From assembly GCA_041645005.1 (NCBI GenBank), contig JBAZQW010000001.1:26728-90727 (forward strand): a DNA stretch of 64,000 nucleotides, written 5' to 3'. The position numbers were made by a program, and so were the translations under genes. Shown piece after piece: positions 25,978 through 58,869 of this stretch. This DNA is from Desulfotomaculaceae bacterium. Lineage in GTDB: Bacteria > Bacillota > Desulfotomaculia > Desulfotomaculales > Pelotomaculaceae. The notes beneath the pieces were generated by a model, which saw only the letters and a list, made by a program, of their open reading frames with translations, had not been told where the DNA came from and searched no databases. Within the stretch, counting starts at the first letter, position 1. Each line of letters starts with the position of its first letter.

Positions 25978-27791
25978 CAGTTGTTCTCCATTGCGATAAT
26001 TTTATCTGCTCCCCATTGAGACGTGTATTCTTTATTTGCTCGCTTTAAGACCGCTGCTCTGCTTTCTCCCGCCGCTAAGCCATCTAGGCAGGAGCGCAAA
26101 TAAGAACCCATTCTCTCTCCCGCCCGGCCGTCCCGATAAGGATCGAGCTTATCACAATACTTTGTCCAATCGCCCAGATCGGGTAAGTCGCCGCGATTAT
26201 TTTTGTACTTTTTAAGAGCAGCGATCAATTTGTCAACATCATCGAATATTAATCTCCCCTCTCCCCATTTGTAGAACTCGTGGGAACGGAATTTTGTCAG
26301 GTCGCAATGAATGCCCCGACAACCGGCTATGGCCGATTCAATGACCGCGGTCGAGATGCCGATCCCAACTGCCATGTCGCCGGCCGCCGCAGCGTCAACA
26401 GGCAAACGGCCTATTTCTTTGTTAAAGCGGAAACATCTGCCTGTTGCCATTAATTTATTTAAAGCCGGCAAAACCTGGCCAAGATCAGCCAGAAATTGCG
26501 GTTTTTTTGTTTTGATTATTATTCCGATGCTCTCATCTTTCAGTGCCCAGTTGATAAATGCCAGATAATATTTTTCCATCATTTCTTTTGAAAATTGATA
26601 TTGCGGCCCAAAAACATTGTCGAATAAAGCGATCACGAACGCCGCGCCTTTCGCTCGCAGCTTTTCACGTACCGGCCGGGATCTTTTGAGTATTTCCTTA
26701 AAAACCAGATCATTTGGATAACCGGTCACGACATTTGTCGTGATCTTATTAAGGTTGGGCGACAAATAACAATTGGAGCGCGGCGTCCAGCTAAAAAAGA
26801 CATCTTTCACATGATACCCAAAATACGTTTCTACGTTTAGAAATAACTCTGAGCGCTGCTTGCCAACAGCCAGACCAAGCTGGCCGGCAGCAAAAGCAAT
26901 TGTTTTAGGGATATGATCGATCCCGCCTTCCCCAATTATGAAATTGATCTTAACGTTAAAGTCTTGATAAAAGGCTCGCCAGTAATTAACTGCTAGGAGC
27001 AGCTCTTTTCCCTTGGCCATGATCCATTTATCAACACTATTACCGGGCCTGATCGCTGAAGGGGAGAGTTCCAACCTCTTCGCCGAGCCAGGCCGCCAGA
27101 CTGGGGCGTTTTTTCTGGCAACCGATCCGCGATTCAACGACACCCAACGCATCCCCATTTTTTCGATCTGATCTAAGACGTTTTCGGCAACCGGCCTACC
27201 AGTGACATTGTCCGCCCCTTCAAAATAGACCAGAACCTGGCCCGGATCGATCCGGCTCTTGGCCAACCAGACAAAATCAGACCGCCGCTCGAGATTTAAC
27301 CCCTCGGCATAAGCGACCGCGAGCACCGGCTTATTGACCGAAGAAAGAGCAGGCCGGTCAGCAGGCTTTATTTCACGAAGAAACCTTAATAACGATCGGC
27401 CGATCGCTATTAGGATCGATTGACCGGATTTACGTTCTTTAAAAGTTATTAAATACTCCTGATCGTCCCAGACCCGCCGAAACAGGGCGAAAATCCCCTG
27501 ATCAGTTGTGAAAACCAGTTCCCGGGCACTTGACGTGGGCTTGTTCCTCTTTTGCCATTTAGCAACGCAAAGATCGCGCGCGATCTGATATATCTCGGTC
27601 TTTAACGATTTTTGGAAGAAGACGATTGTTTTATCGCTGGGCAAGACTTGCTCGATCTTTTGATAGATCGGTAATTCAGATAACAGCTTGGACATTTTTA
27701 AAGCTAATTCTGAAGCCAGCGTCTCCACTTCATATTTTAATGAAGCGCCGGATTCGCTTTTCATCTCGCCCAGGTCATAAGCCAAAGTCAT
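25977..27791 (-). CDS. Uncharacterised 604-aa protein (U2) with a possible GT-B-like C-terminal half
   Basis: Only weak features: IGIIIKTKKPQF and GDMAVGIGISTAVIESAIAGCRGI. It is flanked by two cytidylyltransferase genes. Confidence 0.3.
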   Translation of the reverse strand: MTLAYDLGEMKSESGASLKYEVETLASELALKMSKLLSELPIYQKIEQVLPSDKTIVFFQKSLKTEIYQIARDLCVAKWQKRNKPTSSARELVFTTDQGIFALFRRVWDDQEYLITFKERKSGQSILIAIGRSLLRFLREIKPADRPALSSVNKPVLAVAYAEGLNLERRSDFVWLAKSRIDPGQVLVYFEGADNVTGRPVAENVLDQIEKMGMRWVSLNRGSVARKNAPVWRPGSAKRLELSPSAIRPGNSVDKWIMAKGKELLLAVNYWRAFYQDFNVKINFIIGEGGIDHIPKTIAFAAGQLGLAVGKQRSELFLNVETYFGYHVKDVFFSWTPRSNCYLSPNLNKITTNVVTGYPNDLVFKEILKRSRPVREKLRAKGAAFVIALFDNVFGPQYQFSKEMMEKYYLAFINWALKDESIGIIIKTKKPQFLADLGQVLPALNKLMATGRCFRFNKEIGRLPVDAAAAGDMAVGIGISTAVIESAIAGCRGIHCDLTKFRSHEFYKWGEGRLIFDDVDKLIAALKKYKNNRGDLPDLGDWTKYCDKLDPYRDGRAGERMGSYLRSCLDGLAAGESRAAVLKRANKEYTSQWGADKIIAMENN

Positions 27792-28474
27792 CTGATTTTA
27801 TCCCCTAACAAGGCTTCAGCCACTTTAAGGTCGTATTCGGAATCTATATCGAGCGATCTTTCAGCCGGCATCACATACGCCATGGTTTCTTCGGTAACGA
27901 ACGCTTTCTTTTCCAGCAGCCAATCGACGCGCGCGCAATAAACGGCGCCATTGAGAGTATACGCTTTCGGCAAATCCTGGCGGCGCAGGATAAATTTCTC
28001 TGTTGAGATCAAGGGGCGCAAATGATTCTCACGGTCAACGGAAAATGTCCAGTAAAGGCTTTTCCCCGCTTCGACTACCGAGACGCATGAATTTGCTTTT
28101 GTTTTAAGGCACATTTCAATGCAACCATCAATATCCGCCGCTGCTCTCAGCGGTGAAGTCGGCTGCAATAAAACAACATAATCGTATTTGTCTTTTAGGA
28201 TCTTTAAAGCATGTAGTACGACCTCAATCGTCAAAGTGCCATCCCCGGCTAATTCAATCGGGCGCACAAAAGGAACCTCGCAACCGTTATTTCGTGCTAC
28301 AGCTATAATTTCCTGGTCTTCCGAAGACAGGATCAAACGATCAAGCTGTTTTGACTTTTTTGCCTGCTCGATCGTCCAGACGATGAGCGGTTGCCCGGCG
28401 ACCTGCTTCAGGTTTTTACCGGGAACCCCTTTGGACCCGCCCCGCGCCGTGATGATGCCGAGAATTTTACTCAT
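27788..28474 (-). CDS. neuA: N-acylneuraminate (nonulosonate) cytidylyltransferase
   Basis: N-terminus MSKILGIITARGGSKGVPGKNLKQVAGQPLIVWTI. 228 aa. Confidence 0.85.
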   Translation of the reverse strand: MSKILGIITARGGSKGVPGKNLKQVAGQPLIVWTIEQAKKSKQLDRLILSSEDQEIIAVARNNGCEVPFVRPIELAGDGTLTIEVVLHALKILKDKYDYVVLLQPTSPLRAAADIDGCIEMCLKTKANSCVSVVEAGKSLYWTFSVDRENHLRPLISTEKFILRRQDLPKAYTLNGAVYCARVDWLLEKKAFVTEETMAYVMPAERSLDIDSEYDLKVAEALLGDKIR

Positions 28475-29859
28475 GATTGCCTAAAACCCCGGAAAGATTG
28501 ATCTTTTTCCAGATATAATTTTTTAGCGGTCTCTCTGGCCTTGATCCTTTGATGGGAGTAATAATTCTCGATCAGTTGGATGTTGGCGTCATGGAGCGCC
28601 CGCAATACTTCATCCTCGGTCATCTCGGTAAAATTAACCGACAACAGATCGGAATTAGTGTGTTTATTTTCATAGAAGTCGGCGCAATCCTTGAGCAGCC
28701 CTTTTTCGATCGCGTAATAGTACAACGGAGAGCCCGGGTAAGGCGTGACTGGTCTGATCGTCCGCAGCTGCGAATGGTCGTCGTATTTCAATAAAAACTC
28801 CATCCCCAGGCGCAGCGACTCGGCATTCTCGCCGATATTACCAAAAATAATATTATAGCCCGGGCTGATCCCGGCCGCCAAAGTGTTTTCTATCCCTGTA
28901 ATAATTTGCTTGACGGTCAGAGCCTTATTCATCGCCCGCAACGCTTTTTCATCCATTGATTCAATTCCATAATTAATAAAAACACACCCGGCTTCCTTCA
29001 TCAGCTTTAGAAGATCGGGCTTGGCGTAATTCAATCTGCCGTTGCAATCCCATTTAATGTTCAACTGCGCTTTTATGAATGCCCGGCAAAGCTCTTCCGT
29101 CCTGGCGACCGAGGACATCAGCAGCTCATCGCCAAAGGCGATATAAGTAATGCCGAATTTCCTTTTCAGCAATTCGATCTCCTCGATGATGCTGTCGCTC
29201 CGTCGCGGCCGGAAACCCTTGTCCATCCGGTAGCAGAAATTGCATTCAAAAGTACAGCCCCGCCCGGAAAGGATCGGCATGACAAAGTCGGCATTGGTCG
29301 CGTGGGGCATCCGCAGCAGCCGATAATATTCTATTGGGAAGAGCTCATAAGCCGGGAACGGGATGGAATCTATATCTTCGATCAGGGGCCGGCGTTCGTT
29401 AACAACAACCTTGTCGCCCTCCCGGGAAGCGATCCCTTTGACCTCCTTCAGCGGCAATCGCTGCGCCACCGCTTCTAACAATTCGATTATCGTTCTTTCG
29501 CCTTCGCCGATGACCACCGCGTCAGCGCCGGTCTTTTTCAAGAAGTACTCCGGCTCCGGTGAAGGACCGTGGCCGCCGATGATGTAAAAAGGCCGGTTCT
29601 TAGCGCGGTTGATCGCCTCGGATATTTTCAGCAATTTCCTGTATTGGTAATAGCCGCCGACCACGCTGACACCGATAAAATCATACCGGTTCTTATCAAG
29701 ATGGGCCTGAAGATGCGATTCGGGATAATGATGCTGATCCTGGCTATAAATCTCTACTTCGTGGCCGGCTTTAAGCAACACGGCGGCAATATACCCCAAA
29801 CCCTGGGGGAACCAGTGAATATAGGAGTCGTTATCATAAACTACCAGTAAAACTCTCAA
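28471..29859 (-). CDS. B12-binding-domain radical SAM enzyme (class B)
   Basis: An N-terminal cobalamin-binding-like domain (FYIIGGHGPSPEPEYF) is followed by CxxxCxxC as SGRGCTFECNFCY. TTG start at 29859 with GAGGGAG upstream. Confidence 0.8.
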   Translation of the reverse strand: MRVLLVVYDNDSYIHWFPQGLGYIAAVLLKAGHEVEIYSQDQHHYPESHLQAHLDKNRYDFIGVSVVGGYYQYRKLLKISEAINRAKNRPFYIIGGHGPSPEPEYFLKKTGADAVVIGEGERTIIELLEAVAQRLPLKEVKGIASREGDKVVVNERRPLIEDIDSIPFPAYELFPIEYYRLLRMPHATNADFVMPILSGRGCTFECNFCYRMDKGFRPRRSDSIIEEIELLKRKFGITYIAFGDELLMSSVARTEELCRAFIKAQLNIKWDCNGRLNYAKPDLLKLMKEAGCVFINYGIESMDEKALRAMNKALTVKQIITGIENTLAAGISPGYNIIFGNIGENAESLRLGMEFLLKYDDHSQLRTIRPVTPYPGSPLYYYAIEKGLLKDCADFYENKHTNSDLLSVNFTEMTEDEVLRALHDANIQLIENYYSHQRIKARETAKKLYLEKDQSFRGFRQS

Positions 29860-29872
29860 GCCATTATCTCCC

Positions 29873-30868
29873 TCATGCCGGAAGCAAGTCTCCCAGCGTC
29901 TTTATTATTTCCGACTTATTTAGCTGTTCGGCGCTGGCTGAATTGTAATCGGCTGACGGGCTGCTTGACTTCTTGTCAAGCATCCCGGGCAAAATTGTGT
30001 ACATTTTACCGTCATCAACGGCATTGGTCATTTCAATGTGCGTCATCAACTCTTCGTGGAACTTTTCTCCCGAACGCATACCGATCTCCTTAATTTCGAT
30101 CTTTTTGGGGTCATGACCATACCTGCCAGCCAGCATTTCGATCATCGCCTCCGCCAAAACTCCGACTTTGACCGCCGGCATTTTAAGGATAAAGATCTCT
30201 CCACCTTTGGAGCCGACCGCGGCGTTCAAGATCAGTTCTACCGATTGCGCTATGCTCATGATAAACCGGGTCATGTTGGGATCGGTTACCGTCACCGGCC
30301 CACCCCGTTTGATCTGATCCAAAAATATCGGGACGACTGACCCGCGGGAAGCCAGCACATTGCCGAAGCGGACGCAGGCAAAAGCCGTTCGGCCCAAACC
30401 CTTATAATTATTGGAGGAGATGGTGATCCTTTCGGCCAGTAATTTGGTGGCCCCCATGACATTGATCGGATTGACTGCCTTATCAGTGCTTATATTAATG
30501 ACCTTCCCGACGTTCTGGAATAAGGCCTCTTTGATCACATTCTGTGTTCCGATAACATTTGTTTTCACAGCTTCAAATGGATCAAATTCACAAGCGGGCA
30601 CATGCTTGAGCGCGGCAGCGTGAAAAACTATATCAATTGAGTCCATCGCCCATTTTAAACGCTCTTCATCACGGATATCGCCGAACAAGAAACGCACTTT
30701 GCCTTTGCTGCCGTATTTCTGAGACAAATTAAATTGGGCATCCTCATCATTGCTGAATACTCTGATAACGGAAGGTTCATATTTAATGACCTGCCGGACG
30801 ATCTCGCTGCCGATCGAACCCGTTCCCCCCGTCACCAGGATCTTTTTGCCGGAAAAGTAATCCTTCAT
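29873..30868 (-). CDS. PseB/LgaA/CapD-type UDP-N-acetylglucosamine 4,6-dehydratase
   Basis: Motifs KKILVTGGTGSIGSEIV, HAAALKHVPACEFDPFEAVKTNVIGTQNV and STDKAVNPINVMGATK. Confidence 0.85.
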   Translation of the reverse strand: MKDYFSGKKILVTGGTGSIGSEIVRQVIKYEPSVIRVFSNDEDAQFNLSQKYGSKGKVRFLFGDIRDEERLKWAMDSIDIVFHAAALKHVPACEFDPFEAVKTNVIGTQNVIKEALFQNVGKVINISTDKAVNPINVMGATKLLAERITISSNNYKGLGRTAFACVRFGNVLASRGSVVPIFLDQIKRGGPVTVTDPNMTRFIMSIAQSVELILNAAVGSKGGEIFILKMPAVKVGVLAEAMIEMLAGRYGHDPKKIEIKEIGMRSGEKFHEELMTHIEMTNAVDDGKMYTILPGMLDKKSSSPSADYNSASAEQLNKSEIIKTLGDLLPA

Positions 30869-31992
30869 TTTTTCACTCCTTGCAGCGCCGCTTTAAGCGC
30901 TTTGACGACTTGATCGATCTGACTTTCTGATAAACGGTTAAAAAACGGCAGCGCGATCGTCCGATCAGCGACCGCTTCAGTGATCGGGAAATCACCTCTT
31001 TTAAAACCGAATTCTTTTTTGTAAAATGGCTGTAAATGGATCGGCGGGAAATAGGCGCTGCAGCCGATCCCCTTGGCCCGCAATTCCAAGATTATCCGGT
31101 CGCGCTGGGCAGAAGAGAATTCATCGGCCAACCGCACGACATAGACAAACCAGCTTCGTTTAATGCCAGCAGTTTCTCTCGGCGGCAGGATCAACCCCTG
31201 AATACCTCTCAATTTTGCCTCATAAAGATCCGCCGCTCTTTGGCGACGTTTTAACAGTTCAGCGATCCTTTTCAACTGGGCGATCCCGAGCGCGCAGTTA
31301 ATGTCGCTTAAGCGGTAGTTATAACCCAGCCGGCTGTGCGCCAACCAACCCATACCATCATCCCGCCCCTGATTACGCATGCTTCTCGCCAACAATGCGA
31401 TCTTTGCGCTGTTAGTCGCGATCAAGCCGCCTTCGCCGGTGGTCATCTGTTTGTTGGGATAAAAAGCGATAACAGAACAGTCGCCGAACGTTCCGGCTTT
31501 CCGGCCGTCAATCTCTGCCCCCACCGCCTCACAGGCATCTTCGATCACCGACAAACTATGTTTATTGGCGATCGCCATGATCTTTTTCATGTCGCAGGGA
31601 TAACCGAAAACATGGACCGGCAGGATCGCTTTGGTCTTTTTGTTTATCTTGCCAACGATCTTCTTGACATCGATATTGAGAGTGTCGGGATCGATATCGA
31701 CAAAGACAGGCCTGACCCGTTCAAACAGCAGACAGTTAGCGGAAGCGATAAAACTAAAAGGGGTAGTAATGACCTCATCATCATCTTTTAGACCCAGCGC
31801 TCTGACGCAAAGATGGAGGCCGCTGGTCCCGCTGTTGACGGCGACCGCATGTTTAACACCCAAATAGGCCGCGAATTTATTTTCAAATTCCGGCAGTTTC
31901 GGCCCCAGGCTTAAGTTCGGTGTCCTTAAAACAGCCAGAACAGCTTCTCTTTCGCTGTCAGTAATATCCGGATTTGATAATGGTATTTTCAT
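30865..31992 (-). CDS. DegT/PseC/LegC-type sugar-nucleotide aminotransferase
   Basis: Start moved to ATG 31992 (MKIPLSNPDITDSEREAV). Motifs AVNSGTSGLHL and IEDACEAVGA. Confidence 0.85.
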   Translation of the reverse strand: MKIPLSNPDITDSEREAVLAVLRTPNLSLGPKLPEFENKFAAYLGVKHAVAVNSGTSGLHLCVRALGLKDDDEVITTPFSFIASANCLLFERVRPVFVDIDPDTLNIDVKKIVGKINKKTKAILPVHVFGYPCDMKKIMAIANKHSLSVIEDACEAVGAEIDGRKAGTFGDCSVIAFYPNKQMTTGEGGLIATNSAKIALLARSMRNQGRDDGMGWLAHSRLGYNYRLSDINCALGIAQLKRIAELLKRRQRAADLYEAKLRGIQGLILPPRETAGIKRSWFVYVVRLADEFSSAQRDRIILELRAKGIGCSAYFPPIHLQPFYKKEFGFKRGDFPITEAVADRTIALPFFNRLSESQIDQVVKALKAALQGVKK

Positions 31993-32393
31993 TTCTTTCC
32001 CAGCTTTTTGACAACTTTGGCCGGCACGCCGAAAGCCACGCAATTGTCCGGTATATCCTTATTGACGAAAGAAAAAGCGCCGACAATTGAATTCTTGCCA
32101 ACTGTAACCCCCGGCATAACTACGCAGTGACTGCCGAGACAACTGTCTTTCTTAAGCCAGACTTTCCCATTTTTGCCGTCGATCGTGGAAACAGAATAGA
32201 TAGAACAATGCGAGCCGACCTGGACTCCGGCCTCGATAACTACTCCGTTCTTGGCGTTGATATATGTAAATGCCCCGATATCAGTCTTGTTGCCAAGCAC
32301 CAAGTTATTCGCATGCTGGATCAGCCAGTTATATTTGGTTAATTTACCCTCTTTAATCGCAGGCAAACGCCATTTCTTAAATCTTTCCGCCAT
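31989..32393 (-). CDS. Left-handed beta-helix (hexapeptide-repeat) N-acetyltransferase
   Basis: Hexapeptide periodicity: IGAFTYINAKNGVVIEAGVQVGSHCSI...LGSHCVVMPGVTVGKNSIVGAFSFV. ATG 32393 has AGGAG 6 nt upstream. Confidence 0.75.
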   Translation of the reverse strand: MAERFKKWRLPAIKEGKLTKYNWLIQHANNLVLGNKTDIGAFTYINAKNGVVIEAGVQVGSHCSIYSVSTIDGKNGKVWLKKDSCLGSHCVVMPGVTVGKNSIVGAFSFVNKDIPDNCVAFGVPAKVVKKLGKK

Positions 32394-32402
32394 GATCATC
32401 TC

Positions 32403-33560
32403 CTAATAGGTTATTTGTTTTTGTAAAAAATCACGGTCTATCCCGATCTTGCTTAAAACTGCCGCGATCTTTTCACCGGCGCGGCCACTACCGTATGGAT
32501 TGACGCAATGATCGATCTGCCGGTGAAACTTATCATCAAATAAGGCTCGTTTGATTGCCTTTATTATTGCTGATTGCTTATGCGGCACATCGATAACATT
32601 CTTCCCCCGCTCTCGCCCCGCTTGCCTGATCCCGATATTAACCACCGGCAGTTTAAATAAGGGGGTTTCGATGATCCCGCCGCTGGAATTGCCGACCAGA
32701 ACTGAAGTATATTTTAACAGACTCAGGTAGACTCTGCGCGGCAGATTTTTAAAGAGCCGGATATTGTCGACAGTTCTTAGTTTTTCGATCTCTCTGATTA
32801 TGGTCCTGCCGCCTGCGTCAGAATTAGGATAGATCACTACCGTTGGCAGATTAAACTGTCTAACCGCAGCGATCGTCCCCTTGATCTGTTCCCCGGCTTG
32901 TTCTATTTGGGTCGTGACCGAATGCTGCAGCAGCACCAGGACTGGTTGAGTAAAATCAAAACCTATTTCAGCCGCTAACGCTTTTTTTGATAATAATGGC
33001 TCATGCAAAACCGTATCCAATCCGGGGGCACCAACCAAAAAAACACGCTTTGGCTCTTCCCCCAGCTTAATTATCCTCTCCTTACTTTCTTTTGATGCCG
33101 GAAAATGGATATGAGCCAGTTTGGTGATCGCGTGCCTGGCCGACTCATCAAGGCCGGCCATGCTGATATCCCCACCATGGATATGGGCAACGGCAATATT
33201 CATATAAGCGCTAGCGATCGACGCCGCCAAGGCCTCGGTCCGGTCACCCAAAACCAAAGTGACATCCGGCCTTATCGAGCTCAGGGCGGCCGCCAGCCCC
33301 GTAATGCCACGGCCGATCGCTTTAGCCATGGCTGCTCCGTCATTGTTAGCCGGGTCCATTTTCACTTGCTGATCGATCCGGAAGCCATCTTGTTGGATCA
33401 AGCCGGCCGTCCGGCCAAATTGAGAGGAAAGGTGCATGCCGGTCGCGATCAATGATAGTTTGAGCTCAGGCCGGGCCCTGATCGCCAACATAACCGGCTT
33501 TAACAGGCCGTATTCGGCCCGGCTACCGGTCACCACGCAAATCTTTCTTCTCTGTTTCAT
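32403..33560 (-). CDS. neuC: UDP-N-acetylglucosamine 2-epimerase, hydrolysing (NeuC/LegG type)
   Basis: Motifs KICVVTGSRAEYGLLKPVM and VAHIHGGD. Start moved to ATG 33560 (ATGA overlap). Confidence 0.85.
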   Translation of the reverse strand: MKQRRKICVVTGSRAEYGLLKPVMLAIRARPELKLSLIATGMHLSSQFGRTAGLIQQDGFRIDQQVKMDPANNDGAAMAKAIGRGITGLAAALSSIRPDVTLVLGDRTEALAASIASAYMNIAVAHIHGGDISMAGLDESARHAITKLAHIHFPASKESKERIIKLGEEPKRVFLVGAPGLDTVLHEPLLSKKALAAEIGFDFTQPVLVLLQHSVTTQIEQAGEQIKGTIAAVRQFNLPTVVIYPNSDAGGRTIIREIEKLRTVDNIRLFKNLPRRVYLSLLKYTSVLVGNSSGGIIETPLFKLPVVNIGIRQAGRERGKNVIDVPHKQSAIIKAIKRALFDDKFHRQIDHCVNPYGSGRAGEKIAAVLSKIGIDRDFLQKQITY

Positions 33561-34309
33561 GTTGTCAACAATTCCGCCTGCCAAATGATCAACTTTTTCC
33601 CGTCTTTTTCAAGGTAAGCGCCCTTGTACGGTTTCGAAAGGGCTTTGATCTTAGCGTAAATATCGTTGAGACTTTCTTTTTCCAAATCGATCCTGTTGTC
33701 AGCCAATTTCGGTTTTTTGAAAACCACCGCTTCCCTTCCATCTTGGGGGGTTCGCGACGCCTGGCCGGCGATAATTAACGGCAAATATTGCCTGATAATC
33801 TTTTTACCGGCTCTGATCACTTTTTTATAAACAGTCGCCGCATCATCAACCTCACCAATCTTGAATTTTTCTTGAGCGATAATATCGCCGTCATCAAGCC
33901 CGGTCCCGGGATAAAACATGGTCAGCCCTGACTCCCTGACGCCTGTCAGGATGGAATTAATGATCGGCGCCGGGCCCCGGCCAAAAGGGAGCAGCGTCGG
34001 ATGAAAACCAATCACGCCTCGCGGCGGTATTTTCAGCACTTCGCCGTCAACGACCTGGCGCCAGCCGCACATCACGACCAGATCAGGCGCCAATTCTTTA
34101 AGCAGCGCTTTTTCTTTGTTGATCTCGGAAACTTGATGGACTTTAACGCCAAAATTTTGCCAGCTTTTGGCCGGTACACCGTCATACATGATCGTGGCCG
34201 CGGTCTGGTCAAGGGTGATGACCGCGTTTAGGTCAAAGCCTTTGACCTTAATCGCTTCTTTCAACAACTCCAAACCCAGTTTATTGGCTGACAACCAGAC
34301 AGTTTTCAT
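33557..34309 (-). CDS. Formyltransferase-like protein (Fmt/PurN N-domain fold), copy 1
   Basis: Motifs VMCGWRQVV, GVIGFHPTLLPFGRGPAPI and LDDGDII. His and Asp are retained, but the canonical Asn of N-x-H is Gly. Confidence 0.65.
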   Translation of the reverse strand: MKTVWLSANKLGLELLKEAIKVKGFDLNAVITLDQTAATIMYDGVPAKSWQNFGVKVHQVSEINKEKALLKELAPDLVVMCGWRQVVDGEVLKIPPRGVIGFHPTLLPFGRGPAPIINSILTGVRESGLTMFYPGTGLDDGDIIAQEKFKIGEVDDAATVYKKVIRAGKKIIRQYLPLIIAGQASRTPQDGREAVVFKKPKLADNRIDLEKESLNDIYAKIKALSKPYKGAYLEKDGKKLIIWQAELLTT

Positions 34310-34313
34310 TTTC

Positions 34314-34961
34314 CTATCTCTGGATCTCCCTGATCAGCATAAAGGCCTCGGCATAATCAGCGCAAATCTCCAAGCCCCGCTTCTTGGCCAGCGTGATCAG
34401 GCCTTCGGCATTGCGCGGGTGCGGCGGCGCTTTAACCTCCGAGGCATAAATCTCGAAGGCTTTGATCTTTTGCTCGATCTGCCGTTCGATCCCGACCCAA
34501 ACGTTCGGGACAAAAGCCCGGTTATTCCATTCGGTTTCGGAGAGGGTCTCGTAACATAACAATTTAATGGTCTTCGGCGGCCGGGTCCCAACGGCGCAAG
34601 CCCGATAAATCAAAGTATGGTCATAATTAAGATCACCTTCAAAATGGGTATAAACGATCGACGGCTTAACCTGGTCGATCACAACCGCGATCTTATTGTT
34701 CAATTCGCCGTGCGGCAGCGTATTGAGCTTGACCGTTGGCTGATCGAGATTAAAACGGCCGGCGATCCCTAATAGCTTGTCCACTTGCGCCTGTTCGACG
34801 ATCTTCTGCTCGATATAGTCCTTCGACCATTCCGGCTCATAGGCACTAGTCACCAGGCAAACATAAACTTTATCTCCGGCGGCAACATGTTTCAAAACCG
34901 TACCGCCGACGCCCAATACTTCGTCATCGGGATGGGCCGCTACCACCAGGACATTTTTCAT
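34314..34961 (-). CDS. PIG-L/LmbE-family N-deacetylase, copy 1
   Basis: Motif VLVVAAHPDDEVLGVGGTV. Start moved to ATG 34961 (ATGA overlap). Confidence 0.8.
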   Translation of the reverse strand: MKNVLVVAAHPDDEVLGVGGTVLKHVAAGDKVYVCLVTSAYEPEWSKDYIEQKIVEQAQVDKLLGIAGRFNLDQPTVKLNTLPHGELNNKIAVVIDQVKPSIVYTHFEGDLNYDHTLIYRACAVGTRPPKTIKLLCYETLSETEWNNRAFVPNVWVGIERQIEQKIKAFEIYASEVKAPPHPRNAEGLITLAKKRGLEICADYAEAFMLIREIQR

Positions 34962-36001
34962 GTCGCCACCTGCTTCCAATTTAATAACGAATCTTTTCTG
35001 ATGTTGCGCCGGGCGGTCCGGCCGATCATTTTTGGCAGATCTTTCGGTTTGATCCCGGTTCCCGGCCGTTTGATGGCTAGCAGTTCCCTGGTCAGCTTAG
35101 TCCCGCCGGGAATATCGCGGGCGGCAACTAGGCTTTTTCGGGTGACTTTTGCGACCGCCCGCTCTGACCGCCGCGGTTCTTTTTTCCCGTTCCCCAGGGC
35201 CGCCTCAACTTGCCGGACCGCCGAAATTAGGGCGGCTAATTCTTTCGGTTCCAGCGAAGCCTGGTGGTCCGGCCCCGGCAGAGTTTTATCGAGCGTAAAG
35301 TGTTTCTCGATGATGGCGGCGCCAAGCGCCACAGCCGCCACGGCAATCCCGATCCCTTCGGTATGATCGGAGTAGCCAACCGGGACATTAAACTCTTTGC
35401 TCATCGTCGCCATCGCCCGCAGATTGACATCAACCGGCCTGGTCGGGTAATTGGAAGTACAGTGCAGCAAGGCCAATTGATAGCTTCCCGCTGATCTCAC
35501 GCACTCAACCGCCGACCGGACCTCCGCCAAAGTCGCCATCCCGGTTGAGAGAAGCAACGGTTTTCGATAAGAAGCGATCTGCCGGAGAAAAGGGAGGTTG
35601 GTCAAGTCACCGGAACTGATCTTGAAAGCCGACAGACCTAAGCGGTTAAGCAGGTCGGCGCTTTCCAGGTCGAACGGCGTCGAGAGGAACATTATCCCCC
35701 GCCGCCGGCAATAGGCGGACAACTTGCGAAAATCAGCGCCGGACAGCTCCAGTTTTTTAAGCATCTCCTGCTGGGAGCCGCCCGCGGTCGTTCTTTTCTG
35801 ATAACCGGCCTTAGGCGCGGTCATCGTCGCCAGCGCCGCCGCCCGGAAGGTCTGGAACTTAACGGCATCGGCCCCGGCCGCTTTGGCCGTGTCGATCAGT
35901 TTTTTGGCCGCGTTAAGGCTCCCGTCATGGTTGACCCCGGCCTCCGCGATGATAAAGACCGGTTGATCGAACCCGATCTTCCGATCGCCGATCTTGATCA
36001 T
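34958..36001 (-). CDS. neuB: Nonulosonic acid synthase (NeuB/LegI family) with C-terminal SAF domain
   Basis: Motifs MIKIGDRKIGFDQPVFIIAEAGVNHDGSL, DAVKFQTF, GYSDHTEG and a C-terminal KRPGTGI SAF-like region. Confidence 0.9.
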   Translation of the reverse strand: MIKIGDRKIGFDQPVFIIAEAGVNHDGSLNAAKKLIDTAKAAGADAVKFQTFRAAALATMTAPKAGYQKRTTAGGSQQEMLKKLELSGADFRKLSAYCRRRGIMFLSTPFDLESADLLNRLGLSAFKISSGDLTNLPFLRQIASYRKPLLLSTGMATLAEVRSAVECVRSAGSYQLALLHCTSNYPTRPVDVNLRAMATMSKEFNVPVGYSDHTEGIGIAVAAVALGAAIIEKHFTLDKTLPGPDHQASLEPKELAALISAVRQVEAALGNGKKEPRRSERAVAKVTRKSLVAARDIPGGTKLTRELLAIKRPGTGIKPKDLPKMIGRTARRNIRKDSLLNWKQVAT

Positions 36002-49432: not shown

Positions 49433-51141
49433 AATATGGCCTTTGCCTGCTCAAAAAATTCTTGGCGGCTAACCGGCCAGGCGACTTCCGCCTGGAACTT
49501 TCTGATCGGCAGACGACCTTTGTTTAGGAATTCGCGGTTATCATCAACGATCATCTTGAACGACCTTAAGCCGGCCGACGCTTCATAAAAAATAATCCCC
49601 GCCGCGGCCAATTCACGGTCGATCTCCTTCCCGCGCACGGTAGCCTGCAGGCATTCCCATTCATTATGGAAAACCAAAGTTGGCACTCCCGCCTGGACAG
49701 ATTCAGCAAAACCAGTACTCACCGTATCCCACAAAACCAGATCAACCATGGCAAACAGCTCATGCGGTTTTTGACTGACAATCCCAACACTCCCGGCTTT
49801 CAGTTCATCGGCAAACACTTCCTTGATCGGGTCATTAGCGTAGGTTCCGGGAAAAGGCTTGTACAAAACCCTTAGTCCCGGATACAGTCGCTTTAACTCT
49901 TTAAGATATTGGAGCACCTGCAAGCGGTGAACCCGGTTTTTTTCAGGGGAAATTTCTTCGAGATCGGTCATAAAATCCATCAGCGGTCCGGAGGGATAAA
50001 AAAGAGTAAGCTCCTGCCCGTTGATCACCGGCTTATTCCATTTCGGGATTGCGGTTAGGTATGTGCTGCCGAAACTAATCGTTTTTAACCTCGGAAGAAG
50101 GACCTCGCCTTTAAGCCAGTCACTATCATTCTTCCCCCAGGCGAAATAATAATCAAGAAAAGCCAACTCATTGGCCGCTTGTTTGCGGGAACTGATCATG
50201 TTTGATGCTCCGTGCTGATGGCCGATCAACAAGGCTTTCTTTCGCTTGGCCAGCAAGGCAAAGATCTTAAAATTGTCATTACGATAATAACCGGTTGCGG
50301 AGTGGACCTGTTTTATATCCCAGCCGATTAGGAGCCGCGAATAATAAGCTAACGTCTCAGGCAGGCCTTCAACCACCGCCACCGGCAGAGCCCGATCAAC
50401 AAAATCGGCAAAGAGAATGGCTAATGAATCACGGGTTGAATTATTAAGATTCGGCAAGATATTATTGATCCATGCGATAAATACTTTCTCAAAGACGTCA
50501 CGCATATTGAACCGAAGGGTCAAATTGATCGTCACGGAAGGTAGCTGATAATTAAAAATCATCATCTCCCGATCTTCAAGCAGATATTTCATCTTTTCCG
50601 TCTTATCAGCGAGCTTGCGCGGTTTGCTTCTTCTGATCCTGGCAAGCTCAGATCGATCAAGAAAACGCCTGATGATCTTTTTGGGGTTAAAAAGCTCGCC
50701 AACACTCCACCGGTTGAACAATTTCGCCTTGGCGCTCGAGCCTGTCCGGGCGATTGCTTCCCCGCGAAGTGCCTTGGCCAGCCGGCCAAGCAACTGCCGG
50801 TTGATATCCTGATCGTAGTAATATCTTTCAAGAGAAATAAAGCTGTTCAAGTAATAGTATCGATCAGCGGAAATATTCACAGTTTCACCACTCTCGTTGT
50901 TCTTTTCGCTCACTACCGTCCGCAGAAGTCTCTCCACGAAGAAATTGCAGGCCACATGGACCGGAAAACGGTAGAGCAAACGAAATTCTTCGCCGGCCAG
51001 GTCACCGGACGTCACGATTCTGGCCGCATAGAGTTCGGTCAGCAATTCGTCAACCAAGCGGCCAGTTTGGCTGGCTATTTCGCGCTGGTCATATTCACCG
51101 GTCCAGTCCGACCTATTGTAATCTAGCAAAGGCCTCTGCAT
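49429..51141 (-). CDS. Uncharacterised protein of about 570 aa (U4), paralogue of 52553..54235; putative GT-B-type transferase
   Basis: Shared blocks with U5: RFPVHVACNFFVERLLR, KIFALLAKRKKALLIGHQHG, YPSGPLMDFMTDLEEISPEKNRVHRLQVL, YKPFPGTYANDPIK and VDLVLWDTVSTGFAESVQAGVPTLVFH. Start moved to ATG 51141 by alignment to the paralogue. Confidence 0.4.
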   Translation of the reverse strand: MQRPLLDYNRSDWTGEYDQREIASQTGRLVDELLTELYAARIVTSGDLAGEEFRLLYRFPVHVACNFFVERLLRTVVSEKNNESGETVNISADRYYYLNSFISLERYYYDQDINRQLLGRLAKALRGEAIARTGSSAKAKLFNRWSVGELFNPKKIIRRFLDRSELARIRRSKPRKLADKTEKMKYLLEDREMMIFNYQLPSVTINLTLRFNMRDVFEKVFIAWINNILPNLNNSTRDSLAILFADFVDRALPVAVVEGLPETLAYYSRLLIGWDIKQVHSATGYYRNDNFKIFALLAKRKKALLIGHQHGASNMISSRKQAANELAFLDYYFAWGKNDSDWLKGEVLLPRLKTISFGSTYLTAIPKWNKPVINGQELTLFYPSGPLMDFMTDLEEISPEKNRVHRLQVLQYLKELKRLYPGLRVLYKPFPGTYANDPIKEVFADELKAGSVGIVSQKPHELFAMVDLVLWDTVSTGFAESVQAGVPTLVFHNEWECLQATVRGKEIDRELAAAGIIFYEASAGLRSFKMIVDDNREFLNKGRLPIRKFQAEVAWPVSRQEFFEQAKAIL

Positions 51142-51832
51142 ACCCGTATTTATTCTCCTTGCCTCTTTGCCGGCAATTATCAACCACCGCTCTGAGCGAG
51201 AGCGGGCTGGGAAACTCTTTGAGTTCTTCCTTATAAGTTCTGATGGCCGCTTTTTTACTTTGGATATAAGAAGAGATATTAACAACATTGTCTGGCTTGA
51301 ATTTATTAATTTCAATCGGCGGCAAACAATCCATGTTCCCAGGGATCTCAAAACAAAACACCGCTCTTTTTTTTACCGGCTCCTTACTTGGTCTGAAAGC
51401 GGTCAGGACAGCCTCGCAACAAACCCGATGGTCACGGTTAATATCTCCCCAGTGATGGGTATAAATAATGTCGGGATCTGTCCCGGCCACGATCCGCTCG
51501 ATCTCCTTAACGATATCCAACAAAGATATGCTGTCAAGCCGCTGATCGGCCAGTCCAAGCGCGTAGCAATTTTTCCTTTTGATCCCCAAGATAGCGGCCG
51601 ACCGAAAAAGTTCTCTTTTTCTCTTTAAAATGAGCTTAGAGTATTTCTTTATCTCACTCTCTCTGGACACGCCGTGGCGGTAAACTCTCGAAGTCACCCC
51701 ATCAGCCAGAGCGATGAGCCTAACCTCCGCACCCGCCTGAACGTGTTTGAGGATCGTTCCCCCGCAACCGAAGGCCTCGTCGTCGGGATGAGCAACAACG
51801 ACCAGAACGTTCTTAGCGCTAAAAAACATCAT
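51113..51832 (-). CDS. PIG-L/LmbE-family N-deacetylase, copy 2
   Basis: Motif VLVVVAHPDDEAFGCGGTI. Start moved to ATG 51832. Confidence 0.8.
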   Translation of the reverse strand: MMFFSAKNVLVVVAHPDDEAFGCGGTILKHVQAGAEVRLIALADGVTSRVYRHGVSRESEIKKYSKLILKRKRELFRSAAILGIKRKNCYALGLADQRLDSISLLDIVKEIERIVAGTDPDIIYTHHWGDINRDHRVCCEAVLTAFRPSKEPVKKRAVFCFEIPGNMDCLPPIEINKFKPDNVVNISSYIQSKKAAIRTYKEELKEFPSPLSLRAVVDNCRQRGKENKYGYAEAFARLQ

Positions 51833-51845
51833 CCACCCCCCGAAT

Positions 51846-52556
51846 TCATGATTTATCAACCTCACCATCCGCAACCATCATTTTAATCTTTACCCTTGCC
51901 TTAACCATATTGCCAACCATCTCGGCCCCGGAAAATTCATATCTCGCCCCTCCCGATTCCAAAAAGGCCGACGGGTATCCGTCAGCATCAAGCATCCGGA
52001 TATGGTCATAAATACTCGCCAATCCCTTTATTTTCGAAATATCACTTTCCGAAGGCTGGCGTCGCTTAAAATATTTTACGGGCCCTCTTTGCGGTTGTGG
52101 CACCGGCCGTTTTTTGATTATATGAGGGATCATTTCATTGAAAATAATTTCTGCCGCCCTAGTGAATATTTCTTGGGCGGTTCCTTTTAACCGCAAATCA
52201 GCTTTTAAATAAACGGGCCCTGCATCATAATCCCCAGTTACTCTGAAAGCAGATATTTTAGTTTTATATATTCCCCTCGAAATTAAGTTCTGCAATGGGC
52301 TGCCACCTCGGCCAAAGGGCAGATCGGTCATATGAAAGGCAATGCATTCCCATTTTTTATATATCGCTTCCGGTATTTTCCACGACCAATGCGGAAAAAA
52401 AATCAATTCTGGATCAACATGATTGATCTTCTGATAGGTTAATTCATCATAGCGACTGATAATCCGCATTGGATCCGCACTCTTTTTGGCAAAAGCGGCG
52501 GCCAGCTTGATGTTCCAGGGCTTAACCGTCGCCACAATATAGTTCCTCCTTTTCAT
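51846..52556 (-). CDS. Formyltransferase-like protein, copy 2
   Basis: Motifs IFFPHWSWKIP, CIAFHMTDLPFGRGGSPLQ and YDAGPVY. The Asn of N-x-H is replaced by Ala. Confidence 0.6.
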   Translation of the reverse strand: MKRRNYIVATVKPWNIKLAAAFAKKSADPMRIISRYDELTYQKINHVDPELIFFPHWSWKIPEAIYKKWECIAFHMTDLPFGRGGSPLQNLISRGIYKTKISAFRVTGDYDAGPVYLKADLRLKGTAQEIFTRAAEIIFNEMIPHIIKKRPVPQPQRGPVKYFKRRQPSESDISKIKGLASIYDHIRMLDADGYPSAFLESGGARYEFSGAEMVGNMVKARVKIKMMVADGEVDKS

Positions 52557-57819: not shown

Positions 57820-58869
57820 TCAGATCATGTCCTTCGTAATCCATTGATCCGCCTTAATATCTCTCCGGGCAACCCGACCAATAACCTTGCGCTCGTCTCT
57901 CGATTTAATCCCCAAACCCGGTCGTTTGACTGTCAACATTTCCGACGTTATCATCGTTCCGCTTTTTATATCATGAACAGCGTGCAAACTGCGACGAGCC
58001 AGGCGAAAATTTTCTCTTTCAGAATCAAGAACAACCTTTTTCCCGTCCCCAAGCAGTAACTCCGTATTCCTGAGATCGGCCACAAATGACCTTAGTTCAT
58101 CTGGCTCCAGAGAAAATGGGTGATCGGGACCGGTCTGTTTCTTATCCAAGGTGATATGCTTTTCGATCACACAAGCCCCCAGGGCGACCGCGGCAATCGA
58201 AGAGATCGGGGTTAAGGTGTGATCAGAAAAGCCAATCGGCAATTTGAACGTTTCTTTTAACGTATTGATTGCGCGTAAATTAATGTCCCGGTAAACGGCC
58301 GGATACTGGCTAACACAATGAAGCAGAATAATATCCCGGCTACCCGACCTCCTTAAAACAGTCAACGCTTCCCTAATCAATTTTAAGTCGCTATTGCCGG
58401 TCGAGATAATGACTGGTTTGCCAGTCTGACCGATCGCTTTGAGCAATCGGAAATCATCCGTCTCATAGCTGGCAATCTTGAAGAAAGGAACATTCAAGCG
58501 ATCCAGTTCTTTGACCGCCGCCAGGTCAAAAGGCGATGAGGCAAACAAGACGGCCCGTTCGCGACATCTCCGCCTAAGAACCTTATGCCATTCTCTCGGC
58601 ATTTCCAGTCTTTTTATCAGCTCGTATGGCCCTTCGCCCGCTCTTGAGCGGCCCTCCATTTCGGAAAGCCGCGGAGTGAATTTTGAATAAAGCGTGTCAG
58701 CACTGTAAGTCTGAAATTTGACCGCATCGACCCCAGCCTCAGCCGCAAGATCGATCATCCGCAACGCCGTCTTCAAATCTCGATTATGGTTAGAGCCTAT
58801 TTCGGCAATGATCAAAACCGGTTCGCCCTGGCCGACCAATCGGCCCCCGATCTTAACTTTATTTTTCAT
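57820..58869 (-). CDS. Nonulosonic acid synthase, PseI/SpsE-like NeuB-family member with SAF domain
   Basis: Motifs PVLIIAEIGSNHN, DAVKFQTY, GFSDHT and KRPGLGI. Confidence 0.85.
   Translation of the reverse strand: MKNKVKIGGRLVGQGEPVLIIAEIGSNHNRDLKTALRMIDLAAEAGVDAVKFQTYSADTLYSKFTPRLSEMEGRSRAGEGPYELIKRLEMPREWHKVLRRRCRERAVLFASSPFDLAAVKELDRLNVPFFKIASYETDDFRLLKAIGQTGKPVIISTGNSDLKLIREALTVLRRSGSRDIILLHCVSQYPAVYRDINLRAINTLKETFKLPIGFSDHTLTPISSIAAVALGACVIEKHITLDKKQTGPDHPFSLEPDELRSFVADLRNTELLLGDGKKVVLDSERENFRLARRSLHAVHDIKSGTMITSEMLTVKRPGLGIKSRDERKVIGRVARRDIKADQWITKDMI

Follow-up and report, generated by a model that had tools for sequence, protein, structure and literature searches.

Predicted N-acyl editing by a PIG-L deacetylase and an asparagine-less formyltransferase-like protein in a legionaminic-acid-type gene cluster

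Why should a nonulosonic acid (NulO) gene cluster encode both a deacetylase and a formyltransferase-like protein, neither of which has a place in the canonical pathways? The question is raised by a 64,000-nucleotide stretch of DNA from a Desulfotomaculaceae bacterium (assembly GCA_041645005.1, contig JBAZQW010000001.1, positions 26,728 to 90,727; hereafter the window, in whose numbering coordinates are given), where a PIG-L/LmbE-family protein and a 250-residue Fmt-like protein are encoded side by side within a legionaminic acid (Leg)-type block. A preliminary description, made from the letters alone, had proposed that the pair exchanges an N-acetyl for an N-formyl or another acyl group and, noting Gly in place of the catalytic Asn of the Fmt-like protein, that donor or chemistry might differ from N10-formyl-tetrahydrofolate (N10-formyl-THF) transfer. 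Comparative evidence favours the acetyl-to-formyl exchange and leaves the idea of a different donor or chemistry unsupported. Our preferred reading, to which we assign a probability of about 0.62, is that the PIG-L protein strips the N-acetyl group of a sugar and the Gly-type Fmt installs N-formyl in its place, the two enzymes constituting an N-acyl editing module within a Leg-type pathway that starts from UDP-N-acetylglucosamine (UDP-GlcNAc).

The Gly-type formyltransferase family and its deacetylase partner

The Fmt-like protein belongs to the Formyl_trans_N family (Table 1), and the strings GFHPTLLPFGRG and LDDGDII are both found in it. Phmmer alignments against Bacillus anthracis Fmt and ArnA placed Gly101-Phe102-His103 opposite the N-x-H motif and Asp139 opposite the catalytic Asp, and a MAFFT alignment with Escherichia coli ArnA, Fmt and PurN (from MG1655) gave the same register, with the His103 and Asp139 columns invariant. 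The catalytic Asn-x-His...Asp set is therefore incomplete, as the preliminary description had read it, His103 and Asp139 being present and Gly101 standing at the Asn position; in neither alignment was there an Asn in register that might compensate. The AlphaFold2 model (predicted local distance difference test score 95.5) has ArnA formyltransferase domains as its best structural matches, with Foldseek template-modelling scores of 0.85–0.90 to ArnA and Fmt. Only positions 5–48 of the 100 in the Formyl_trans_C profile are matched, and the protein scores below the cut-offs both for methionyl-tRNA formyltransferase (TIGR00460, 125.1 bits against 201.5) and for the ArnA equivalog (NF005998, 136.6 bits against 777), its 250 residues lacking the second ArnA domain. 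Also conserved are a PurN-like folate loop (GWRQII against GFMRIL) and the HP(T/S)LLP and LDxGD motifs. His103, Thr105 and Asp139 remain in place, and the family-specific residues Trp83, Arg84, Gln85 and Asn118 are candidates for compensating the missing Asn.

The Asn-to-Gly change is real and ancient. At E < 1e-10 we recovered 405 homologues, the best 120 of which are about 250 residues long and 50–68% identical to the window protein; His103, Asp139, Gly82-Trp83-Arg84 (of the GWRQ motif) and Asn118 are invariant across these 120. Among 107 recognisable motifs in close homologues, 97 read GFH and 8 A/S-F-H, with ATH and NFH found once each. A motif-free HMMER search of 1.84 billion cluster representatives likewise showed Gly in place of Asn in about 140 of the 150 best-scoring sequences, the typical family pattern being G-x-H-[PAS]-[ST] together with a GW motif, and Asn-type ArnA-like proteins appeared only near E 1e-31. 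FastTree placed the window protein in a 28-member clade with 99% support, alongside FolD and NeuC fusion proteins, in a tree with little backbone resolution (57 of 141 inner branches open). Homologues are scattered across DPANN archaea, methanogens, bacteria of the candidate phyla radiation, Margulisiibacteriota, WOR-3, Omnitrophota and others. All 30 relatives that we searched, from the same genus, family and order, lack an orthologue and carry only ordinary Fmt and PurN, so that this segment of the glycan locus has the look of an acquired island. That absence, and a 317-residue Fmt encoded on another contig of the host genome (C65), led us to reject the possibility that the gene encodes a true Fmt.

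The partner aligns with TT1542 and BC1534 across the AHPDDE motif, and its metal and base residues His10, Asp12, Asp13, Asp114 and His115 are invariant in 29 orthologues. Although clearly a PIG-L family member (Table 1), it scores below the cut-offs for BshB1 (TIGR04001, 65.4 bits against 182.5) and MshB (TIGR03445, 22.1 bits against 224.35). At the first His of the HPDH motif of TT1542 and BC1534, both PIG-L proteins of the window have Asn (GDLNYDH at 34314–34961 and GDINRDH at 51113–51874), and orthologues alternate between Asn and His at this position.

Partnership of the Gly-type Fmt with PIG-L is near-obligate. We fetched about 60 loci with a motif pattern containing GFH, a sample in which only PIG-L adjacency is informative, and found an adjacent PIG-L gene in 57 of 61, all four exceptions being truncated at contig ends. 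In two samples based on hidden Markov models, of 401 genomes each (Halobacteriota and Planctomycetota), every one of the eight Gly-type genes had a PIG-L neighbour, compared with 4 of roughly 40 Asn-type genes. Moreover, Gly-type Fmt occurs fused to PIG-L (P0209) and to a WbmS-like deacetylase (P0198), and an Fmt is fused to NeuC (P0123); uninterrupted open reading frames (ORFs) also join NeuB to Fmt and NeuC to PIG-L in one locus (L007) and Fmt to NeuC in two others (L012, L030). The last of these additionally contains an 899-residue CMP-transferase–NeuB–PIG-L ORF. Complex prediction from the Fmt-like and PIG-L alignments scored 0.00, which gives no verdict on binding either way. We define the module here, as an uncurated family, by three features: G-x-H in place of Asn-x-His, a GW motif following strand 4, and a PIG-L gene either next to the formyltransferase gene or fused to it; the window pair has the GFH and GWRQ motifs and its PIG-L gene 4 nt upstream. 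The module is patchy in distribution and probably mobile. In low-G+C Halobacteriota genomes, at loci with no detected NulO genes (L074–L077 and L105), an Asn-type Fmt (NIHPS) adjoins PIG-L, and deacetylase/formyltransferase pairing is therefore not exclusive to the Gly type.

Proposed formyl donor, edited nitrogen and product

The link to folate comes in part from a homologue 49% identical to the window protein (P0126), in which FolD is fused to the N terminus of a Gly-type Fmt bearing GFHPT and GWRQ, and whose gene is directly followed by PIG-L. FolD makes 10-formyl-THF. FolD homologues also lie inside ten close-clade NulO loci, mostly from DPANN archaea, and the genome of the window itself encodes FolD, a normal Fmt and PurN elsewhere. 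A His/Ser/Asp triad is highly conserved among 10-formyl-THF-dependent formyltransferases (HypX paper, PMC6802093); the HypX-type His/Ser(Thr)/Asp set in the window protein is His103, Thr105 and Asp139. Because of the FolD fusion, the ten FolD-containing loci, the folate motifs and this retained set, a different donor is disfavoured, and the Gly-type subfamily appears still to use the ordinary folate formyl donor. By inference only, the evidence comes close to the outcome against which the preliminary description had set its proposal, namely close homologues that act as ordinary formyl-THF sugar formyltransferases. The surroundings of the FolD–Fmt(GFH) fusion and its PIG-L neighbour (L069:10001-12299) contain restriction-modification genes, a transposase and numerous small unknown ORFs but no NulO genes, and may be mobile or viral.

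The logic of the pathway suggests which nitrogen is edited. The C4 amine leaves the aminotransferase already free, so a deacetylase is required only for editing the 2-N-acetyl group inherited from UDP-GlcNAc, and the nitrogen so edited becomes N5 of the nonulosonate. We infer the substrate, the nitrogen, the stage of editing and the manner of Asn-less catalysis, and propose the following scheme. The dehydratase, the aminotransferase and the LbH acetyltransferase would yield UDP-2,4-diacetamido-2,4,6-trideoxyhexose, whose 2-N-acetyl group the zinc-dependent PIG-L protein would hydrolyse; the Gly-type Fmt/ArnA-like enzyme would then transfer formyl from N10-formyl-THF to the freed C2 amine. NeuC, NeuB and the CMP-transferase would convert this sugar to a CMP-5-formamido-7-acetamido nonulosonate (Leg5Fo7Ac or one of its stereoisomers), the choice between Leg and an epimer being beyond the reach of sequence.

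A product of this kind exists. The glycan of Halorubrum sp. PV6 ends in 5-N-formyl-legionaminic acid (PMC6137143), and a locus from a Halobacteriota genome whose proteins are acidic (L101) has its genes in the same order and orientation as HrrPV6_1046-1053: those for the aminotransferase, dehydratase, CMP-transferase, NeuC, Fmt and NeuD share a strand, and those for PIG-L and NeuB lie on the opposite one. The L101 ORFs of 1140, 1026, 723, 1164, 954 and 630 bp compare with amplicons of 1139, 1025, 722, 1163, 953 and 629 bp for HrrPV6_1046-1051 (PMC6137143), and the locus is probably a match for the PV6 cluster. The formyltransferase in L101 has L-G-M-H aligned with the Asn site and is therefore Gly-type; the PIG-L protein fills a slot left undiscussed in that paper.

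Other loci fit a division of labour in which Asn-type enzymes would replace the 4-N-acetyltransferase while Gly-type enzymes with PIG-L would re-tailor N2. Two NulO clusters (L103, L104) have a short Asn-type Fmt and neither LbH nor PIG-L, whereas a third, also without LbH (L102:3659-12223), combines a Gly-type Fmt and PIG-L with an extra Asn-type Fmt and is a candidate for making a doubly N-formylated nonulosonate. In Cetobacterium (L036) a Gly-type Fmt and PIG-L come after bacillosamine genes (PglF/E/C/D), and the ten ORFs scanned include no NeuB, which suggests action at the stage of a UDP- or lipid-linked hexose. The Leg-like cluster of Candidatus Kuenenia stuttgartiensis contains a deacetylase and a formyltransferase, and its cytidine monophosphate (CMP)-linked NulOs carry a formylated amine and a free amine (SugarBase preprint, 10.64898/2026.04.20.719630); the published Kuenenia gene order was found in none of the five Gly-type plus PIG-L loci from the 401 sampled Planctomycetota genomes. 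A Gly-type Fmt and PIG-L also form a pair in L038:4526-10855 and in about 20 other Planctomycetota/Phycisphaerae loci; the neighbours there are an amidohydrolase, a CoA-transferase and another Fmt-like gene, sugar-pathway genes are absent, and the compound edited may not be a nonulosonate precursor.

Several points weigh against editing of N2 by the window pair. It presupposes that NeuC and NeuB accept a 2-formamido sugar, and whether the short LbH protein acetylates N or O is not assignable from sequence. The match of L101 to the PV6 cluster depends on gene order and lengths rather than on a name, the Halorubrum-type enzyme shares only 32% identity with the window protein, and three to four loci underlie the contrast of Asn-type with Gly-type clusters. 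The Kuenenia product, with its free and formylated amines, also fits two enzymes acting on different nitrogens. Finally, Gly is present in the fetched loci by construction, since the retrieval pattern contains GFH, and our NCBIfam search found no curated family or equivalog for the Gly-type proteins.

The most serious alternative is indeed one of different nitrogens, in which the Fmt-like protein formylates the C4 amine (the later N7), PIG-L only frees the N5 amine and O-acetylation is the task of the short LbH protein. In pseudaminic acid (Pse) pathways the C4 amine is the target of PseJ-type formyltransferases, and the Fmt-like protein matches PDB 6ci2; the LbH protein matches the O-acetyltransferase models EpsC, WbbJ and WcaF about as well as the NeuD/PglD model, and the Kuenenia CMP-NulOs have one free and one formylated amine (SugarBase preprint). 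We nevertheless consider this arrangement unlikely: a PglD-type N-acetyltransferase (with a PglD_N domain) occupies the LbH slot beside the same pair in another locus (L001), LbH and PIG-L are both missing where an Asn-type Fmt seems to take the C4 role, fusions of Fmt with deacetylases argue for consecutive steps on one nitrogen, and the Halorubrum sugar is formylated at N5 (PMC6137143).

Other readings question the reaction itself. Gly (rarely Ala or Ser) is fixed where the Asn of classical enzymes contacts the formyl oxygen, and many hosts are methanogens or DPANN archaea, in which one-carbon carriers can differ; loss of the Asn might then signal a donor other than N10-formyl-THF, or transfer of a different acyl or imidoyl group. 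The FolD fusion and FolD co-location point instead to folate, the folate loop, the HP(T/S)LLP (SLLP-type) and LDxGD motifs and the His/Ser(Thr)/Asp set are retained, and a cluster of the Halorubrum type, which has a Gly-type enzyme, yields a formyl product, so this departure from folate chemistry is quite improbable. Pairing of a formyltransferase with a deacetylase-fold deformylase has a precedent in ArnA/ArnD, and ArnA is the closest solved structure to the Fmt-like protein; by analogy, formylation might pull transamination forward and PIG-L later deformylate, leaving a final sugar without formyl. We regard such transient protection as very improbable, given that formyl groups persist in the Halorubrum glycan and the Kuenenia CMP-sugars, that a fused formyltransferase–deformylase would be futile, and that an acetyltransferase able to drive transamination is already encoded. 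It is scarcely credible, lastly, that the Fmt-like protein has no catalytic activity and only assists the deacetylase, by binding substrate or as a scaffold: a canonical catalytic residue has been lost and the C-terminal domain is truncated, but His103, Asp139, the GWRQ motif and Asn118 are invariant across 120 homologues, and fusion to FolD would be pointless.

A broader proposition also presents itself, which we hold tentatively and regard as doubtful. Gly-type Fmt-like proteins would be mechanistically distinct folate-dependent N-formyltransferases for C2 amines freshly bared by a partner deacetylase, with the oxyanion-stabilising Asn replaced by substrate-assisted catalysis or by the co-varying Trp, Arg and Gln of the GW motif, and the pair would be a portable acetyl-off, formyl-on kit for the surface sugars of bacteria, archaea and phages. 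Halorubrum (PMC6137143) and Kuenenia (SugarBase preprint) are known to make N-formylated nonulosonic acids, and the pair would offer a concrete two-step route to them, one that accounts for the deacetylase because the N5 acetyl arrives ready-made from UDP-GlcNAc. A very large clade of formyltransferase-fold proteins without the textbook Asn is now annotated as 'methionyl-tRNA formyltransferase' or hypothetical, and the findings bear on annotation, on genome-based prediction of glycan structure and on catalysis in the PurN/Fmt/ArnA fold.

Operon layout and neighbouring genes

ORF analysis and family searches confirmed the block order given in the preliminary description: NeuB, PIG-L, Fmt-like and NeuC follow one another in transcription order on the minus strand, and then come the LbH acetyltransferase, the DegT aminotransferase and the PseB-type dehydratase (Table 1). 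A B12-radical-SAM protein and a CMP-transferase lie downstream of the dehydratase in the operon block. An ATGA overlap joins the NeuB stop to the PIG-L ATG, 4 nt separate PIG-L from Fmt-like, and a second ATGA joins the Fmt-like stop to the NeuC ATG, so that all four genes are translationally coupled; the overlap with NeuB also makes position 34961, where the interval of the preliminary description ends, the most likely PIG-L start.

NeuB and NeuC exceed their equivalog cut-offs, as expected of an NeuC-dependent, Leg-type pathway, whereas the dehydratase, aminotransferase, acetyltransferase and CMP-transferase are matched at the Pfam level and fall below the PseB, PseC and PseF cut-offs. The PIG-L/Fmt-like pair is an add-on to this pathway, in keeping with its earlier placement outside the canonical routes. 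The B12-binding radical SAM gene accompanies the same NulO block in other loci (L001, L017, L018, L019 and L032), a hint that some additional modification, for instance methylation, is conserved.

Table 1. Coordinates and family matches of genes in the window.
Feature	Coordinates	Strand	Evidence
NeuB-type nonulosonate synthase, 355 aa	34958..36025	-	PF03102 332.6 bits + SAF domain; TIGR03569 467.9 bits > cut-off 399.65
PIG-L/LmbE-family zinc de-N-acetylase, 215 aa from ATG at 34961 (ORF open from TTG at 34979)	34314..34961	-	PF02585 77.2 bits, cut-off 28.2
Gly-type (Asn-less) Fmt/ArnA-like N-formyltransferase (predicted), 250 aa, shortened C-terminal domain	33557..34309	-	PF00551 77.5 bits, gathering cut-off 26.1; PF02911 25.2 bits
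NeuC/LegG-type hydrolysing UDP-sugar 2-epimerase	32403..33560 (ORF open from 33584)	-	TIGR03568 440.6 bits > cut-off 235.9
Short LbH (hexapeptide) acetyltransferase, presumed 4-N-acetyltransferase	31989..32399	-	PF00132 44.5 bits; partial TIGR03570 NeuD/PglB/VioB match
DegT/PseC/LegC-type pyridoxal phosphate aminotransferase	30865..32043	-	PF01041 402.2 bits; PseC 339.9 and LegC-family 283.4 bits, both < cut-offs
PseB/PglF-type UDP-GlcNAc 4,6-dehydratase	29873..30868	-	PF02719 (Polysacc_synt_2) 356.9 bits; TIGR03589 PseB 317.7 bits < cut-off 407.75
B12-binding radical SAM protein	28471..29859
CMP-nonulosonate synthetase (context)	27788..28474	-	PF02348 81.1 bits; TIGR03584 PseF 167.5 bits < cut-off
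Second Asn-less pair	51113..52556	-
Fmt-like2	51846..52556	-	A-F-H; PF21553 C-terminal domain
PIG-L2	51113..51874	-
Second NeuB	57820..58869

Comparison with known systems

Our literature search for a characterised deacetylase/formyltransferase pair turned up only the SugarBase preprint and the Halorubrum paper, each of which predicts genes of this sort in one organism. HrrPV6_1046-1053 of Halorubrum sp. PV6 resembles the window block in being a Leg-type cluster with NeuC, a predicted formyltransferase (HrrPV6_1050), LbH/NeuD and NeuB (Zaretsky et al. 2018, PMC6137143). The Halorubrum-type Fmt differs in its 317 residues and full C-terminal domain, and gene order differs from that of the window; the paper predicts rather than assays the formyltransferase function and discusses neither a deacetylase nor the missing Asn. 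In Ca. Kuenenia the likeness lies in a deacetylase and a formyltransferase inside a Leg-type cluster, with modifications seen on the CMP-sugars by mass spectrometry (10.64898/2026.04.20.719630); the cluster, as described, differs in that no acetyltransferase is listed and in its free-plus-formyl product.

For the deacetylase, the nearest parallels are MshB, BshB and TT1542 (PDB 1uan, 2ixd, 6p2t), which share the AHPDDE and D-H metal and base motifs and whose removal of 2-N-acetyl groups from GlcNAc-type glycosides matches the C2 target proposed here. The window PIG-L differs from them in scores far under the BshB and MshB cut-offs and in the Asn that replaces the first His of HxDH.

A second Asn-less pair of the window (Table 1), in which PIG-L2 follows Fmt-like2, is flanked by LIC12162-family transferases, with FemAB-like, ATP-grasp, phosphoesterase, SDR and second NeuB genes nearby. 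Fmt-like2 matches PDB 1zgh, an uncharacterised structural-genomics entry named Clostridium thermocellum 'methionyl-tRNA formyltransferase', at E 2e-77. This protein is also Asn-less (V-F-H), but it matches the main Fmt-like protein only at E 1.5e-10 and belongs to another subfamily, with a PF21553 C-terminal domain.

Among sugar N-formyltransferases, the short Asn-type enzymes PseJ (PDB 6ci2/6ci4), WbkC (5vyr) and VioF (4yfv) share the Formyl_trans_N domain, serve pathways for amino sugars or nonulosonates and give E values of 1e-12 to 1e-7 against the window protein. The Asn-type Fmt proteins of L103 and L104 differ from it in having N-x-H, in standing in for an acetyltransferase and in having no PIG-L partner. 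The N-terminal formyltransferase domain of E. coli ArnA (PDB 2bln, 5j63, 1yrw) has the same fold as the window protein, to which it is about 25% identical over 246 residues; its substrate is a UDP-amino sugar and its donor N10-formyl-THF, and its His, Asp and SLLP-type motif align with those of the window protein. ArnA differs, however, in having Asn102 where the window protein has Gly101, a complete C-terminal subdomain, a fused decarboxylase and, as its target, a C4 amine that was never acetylated.

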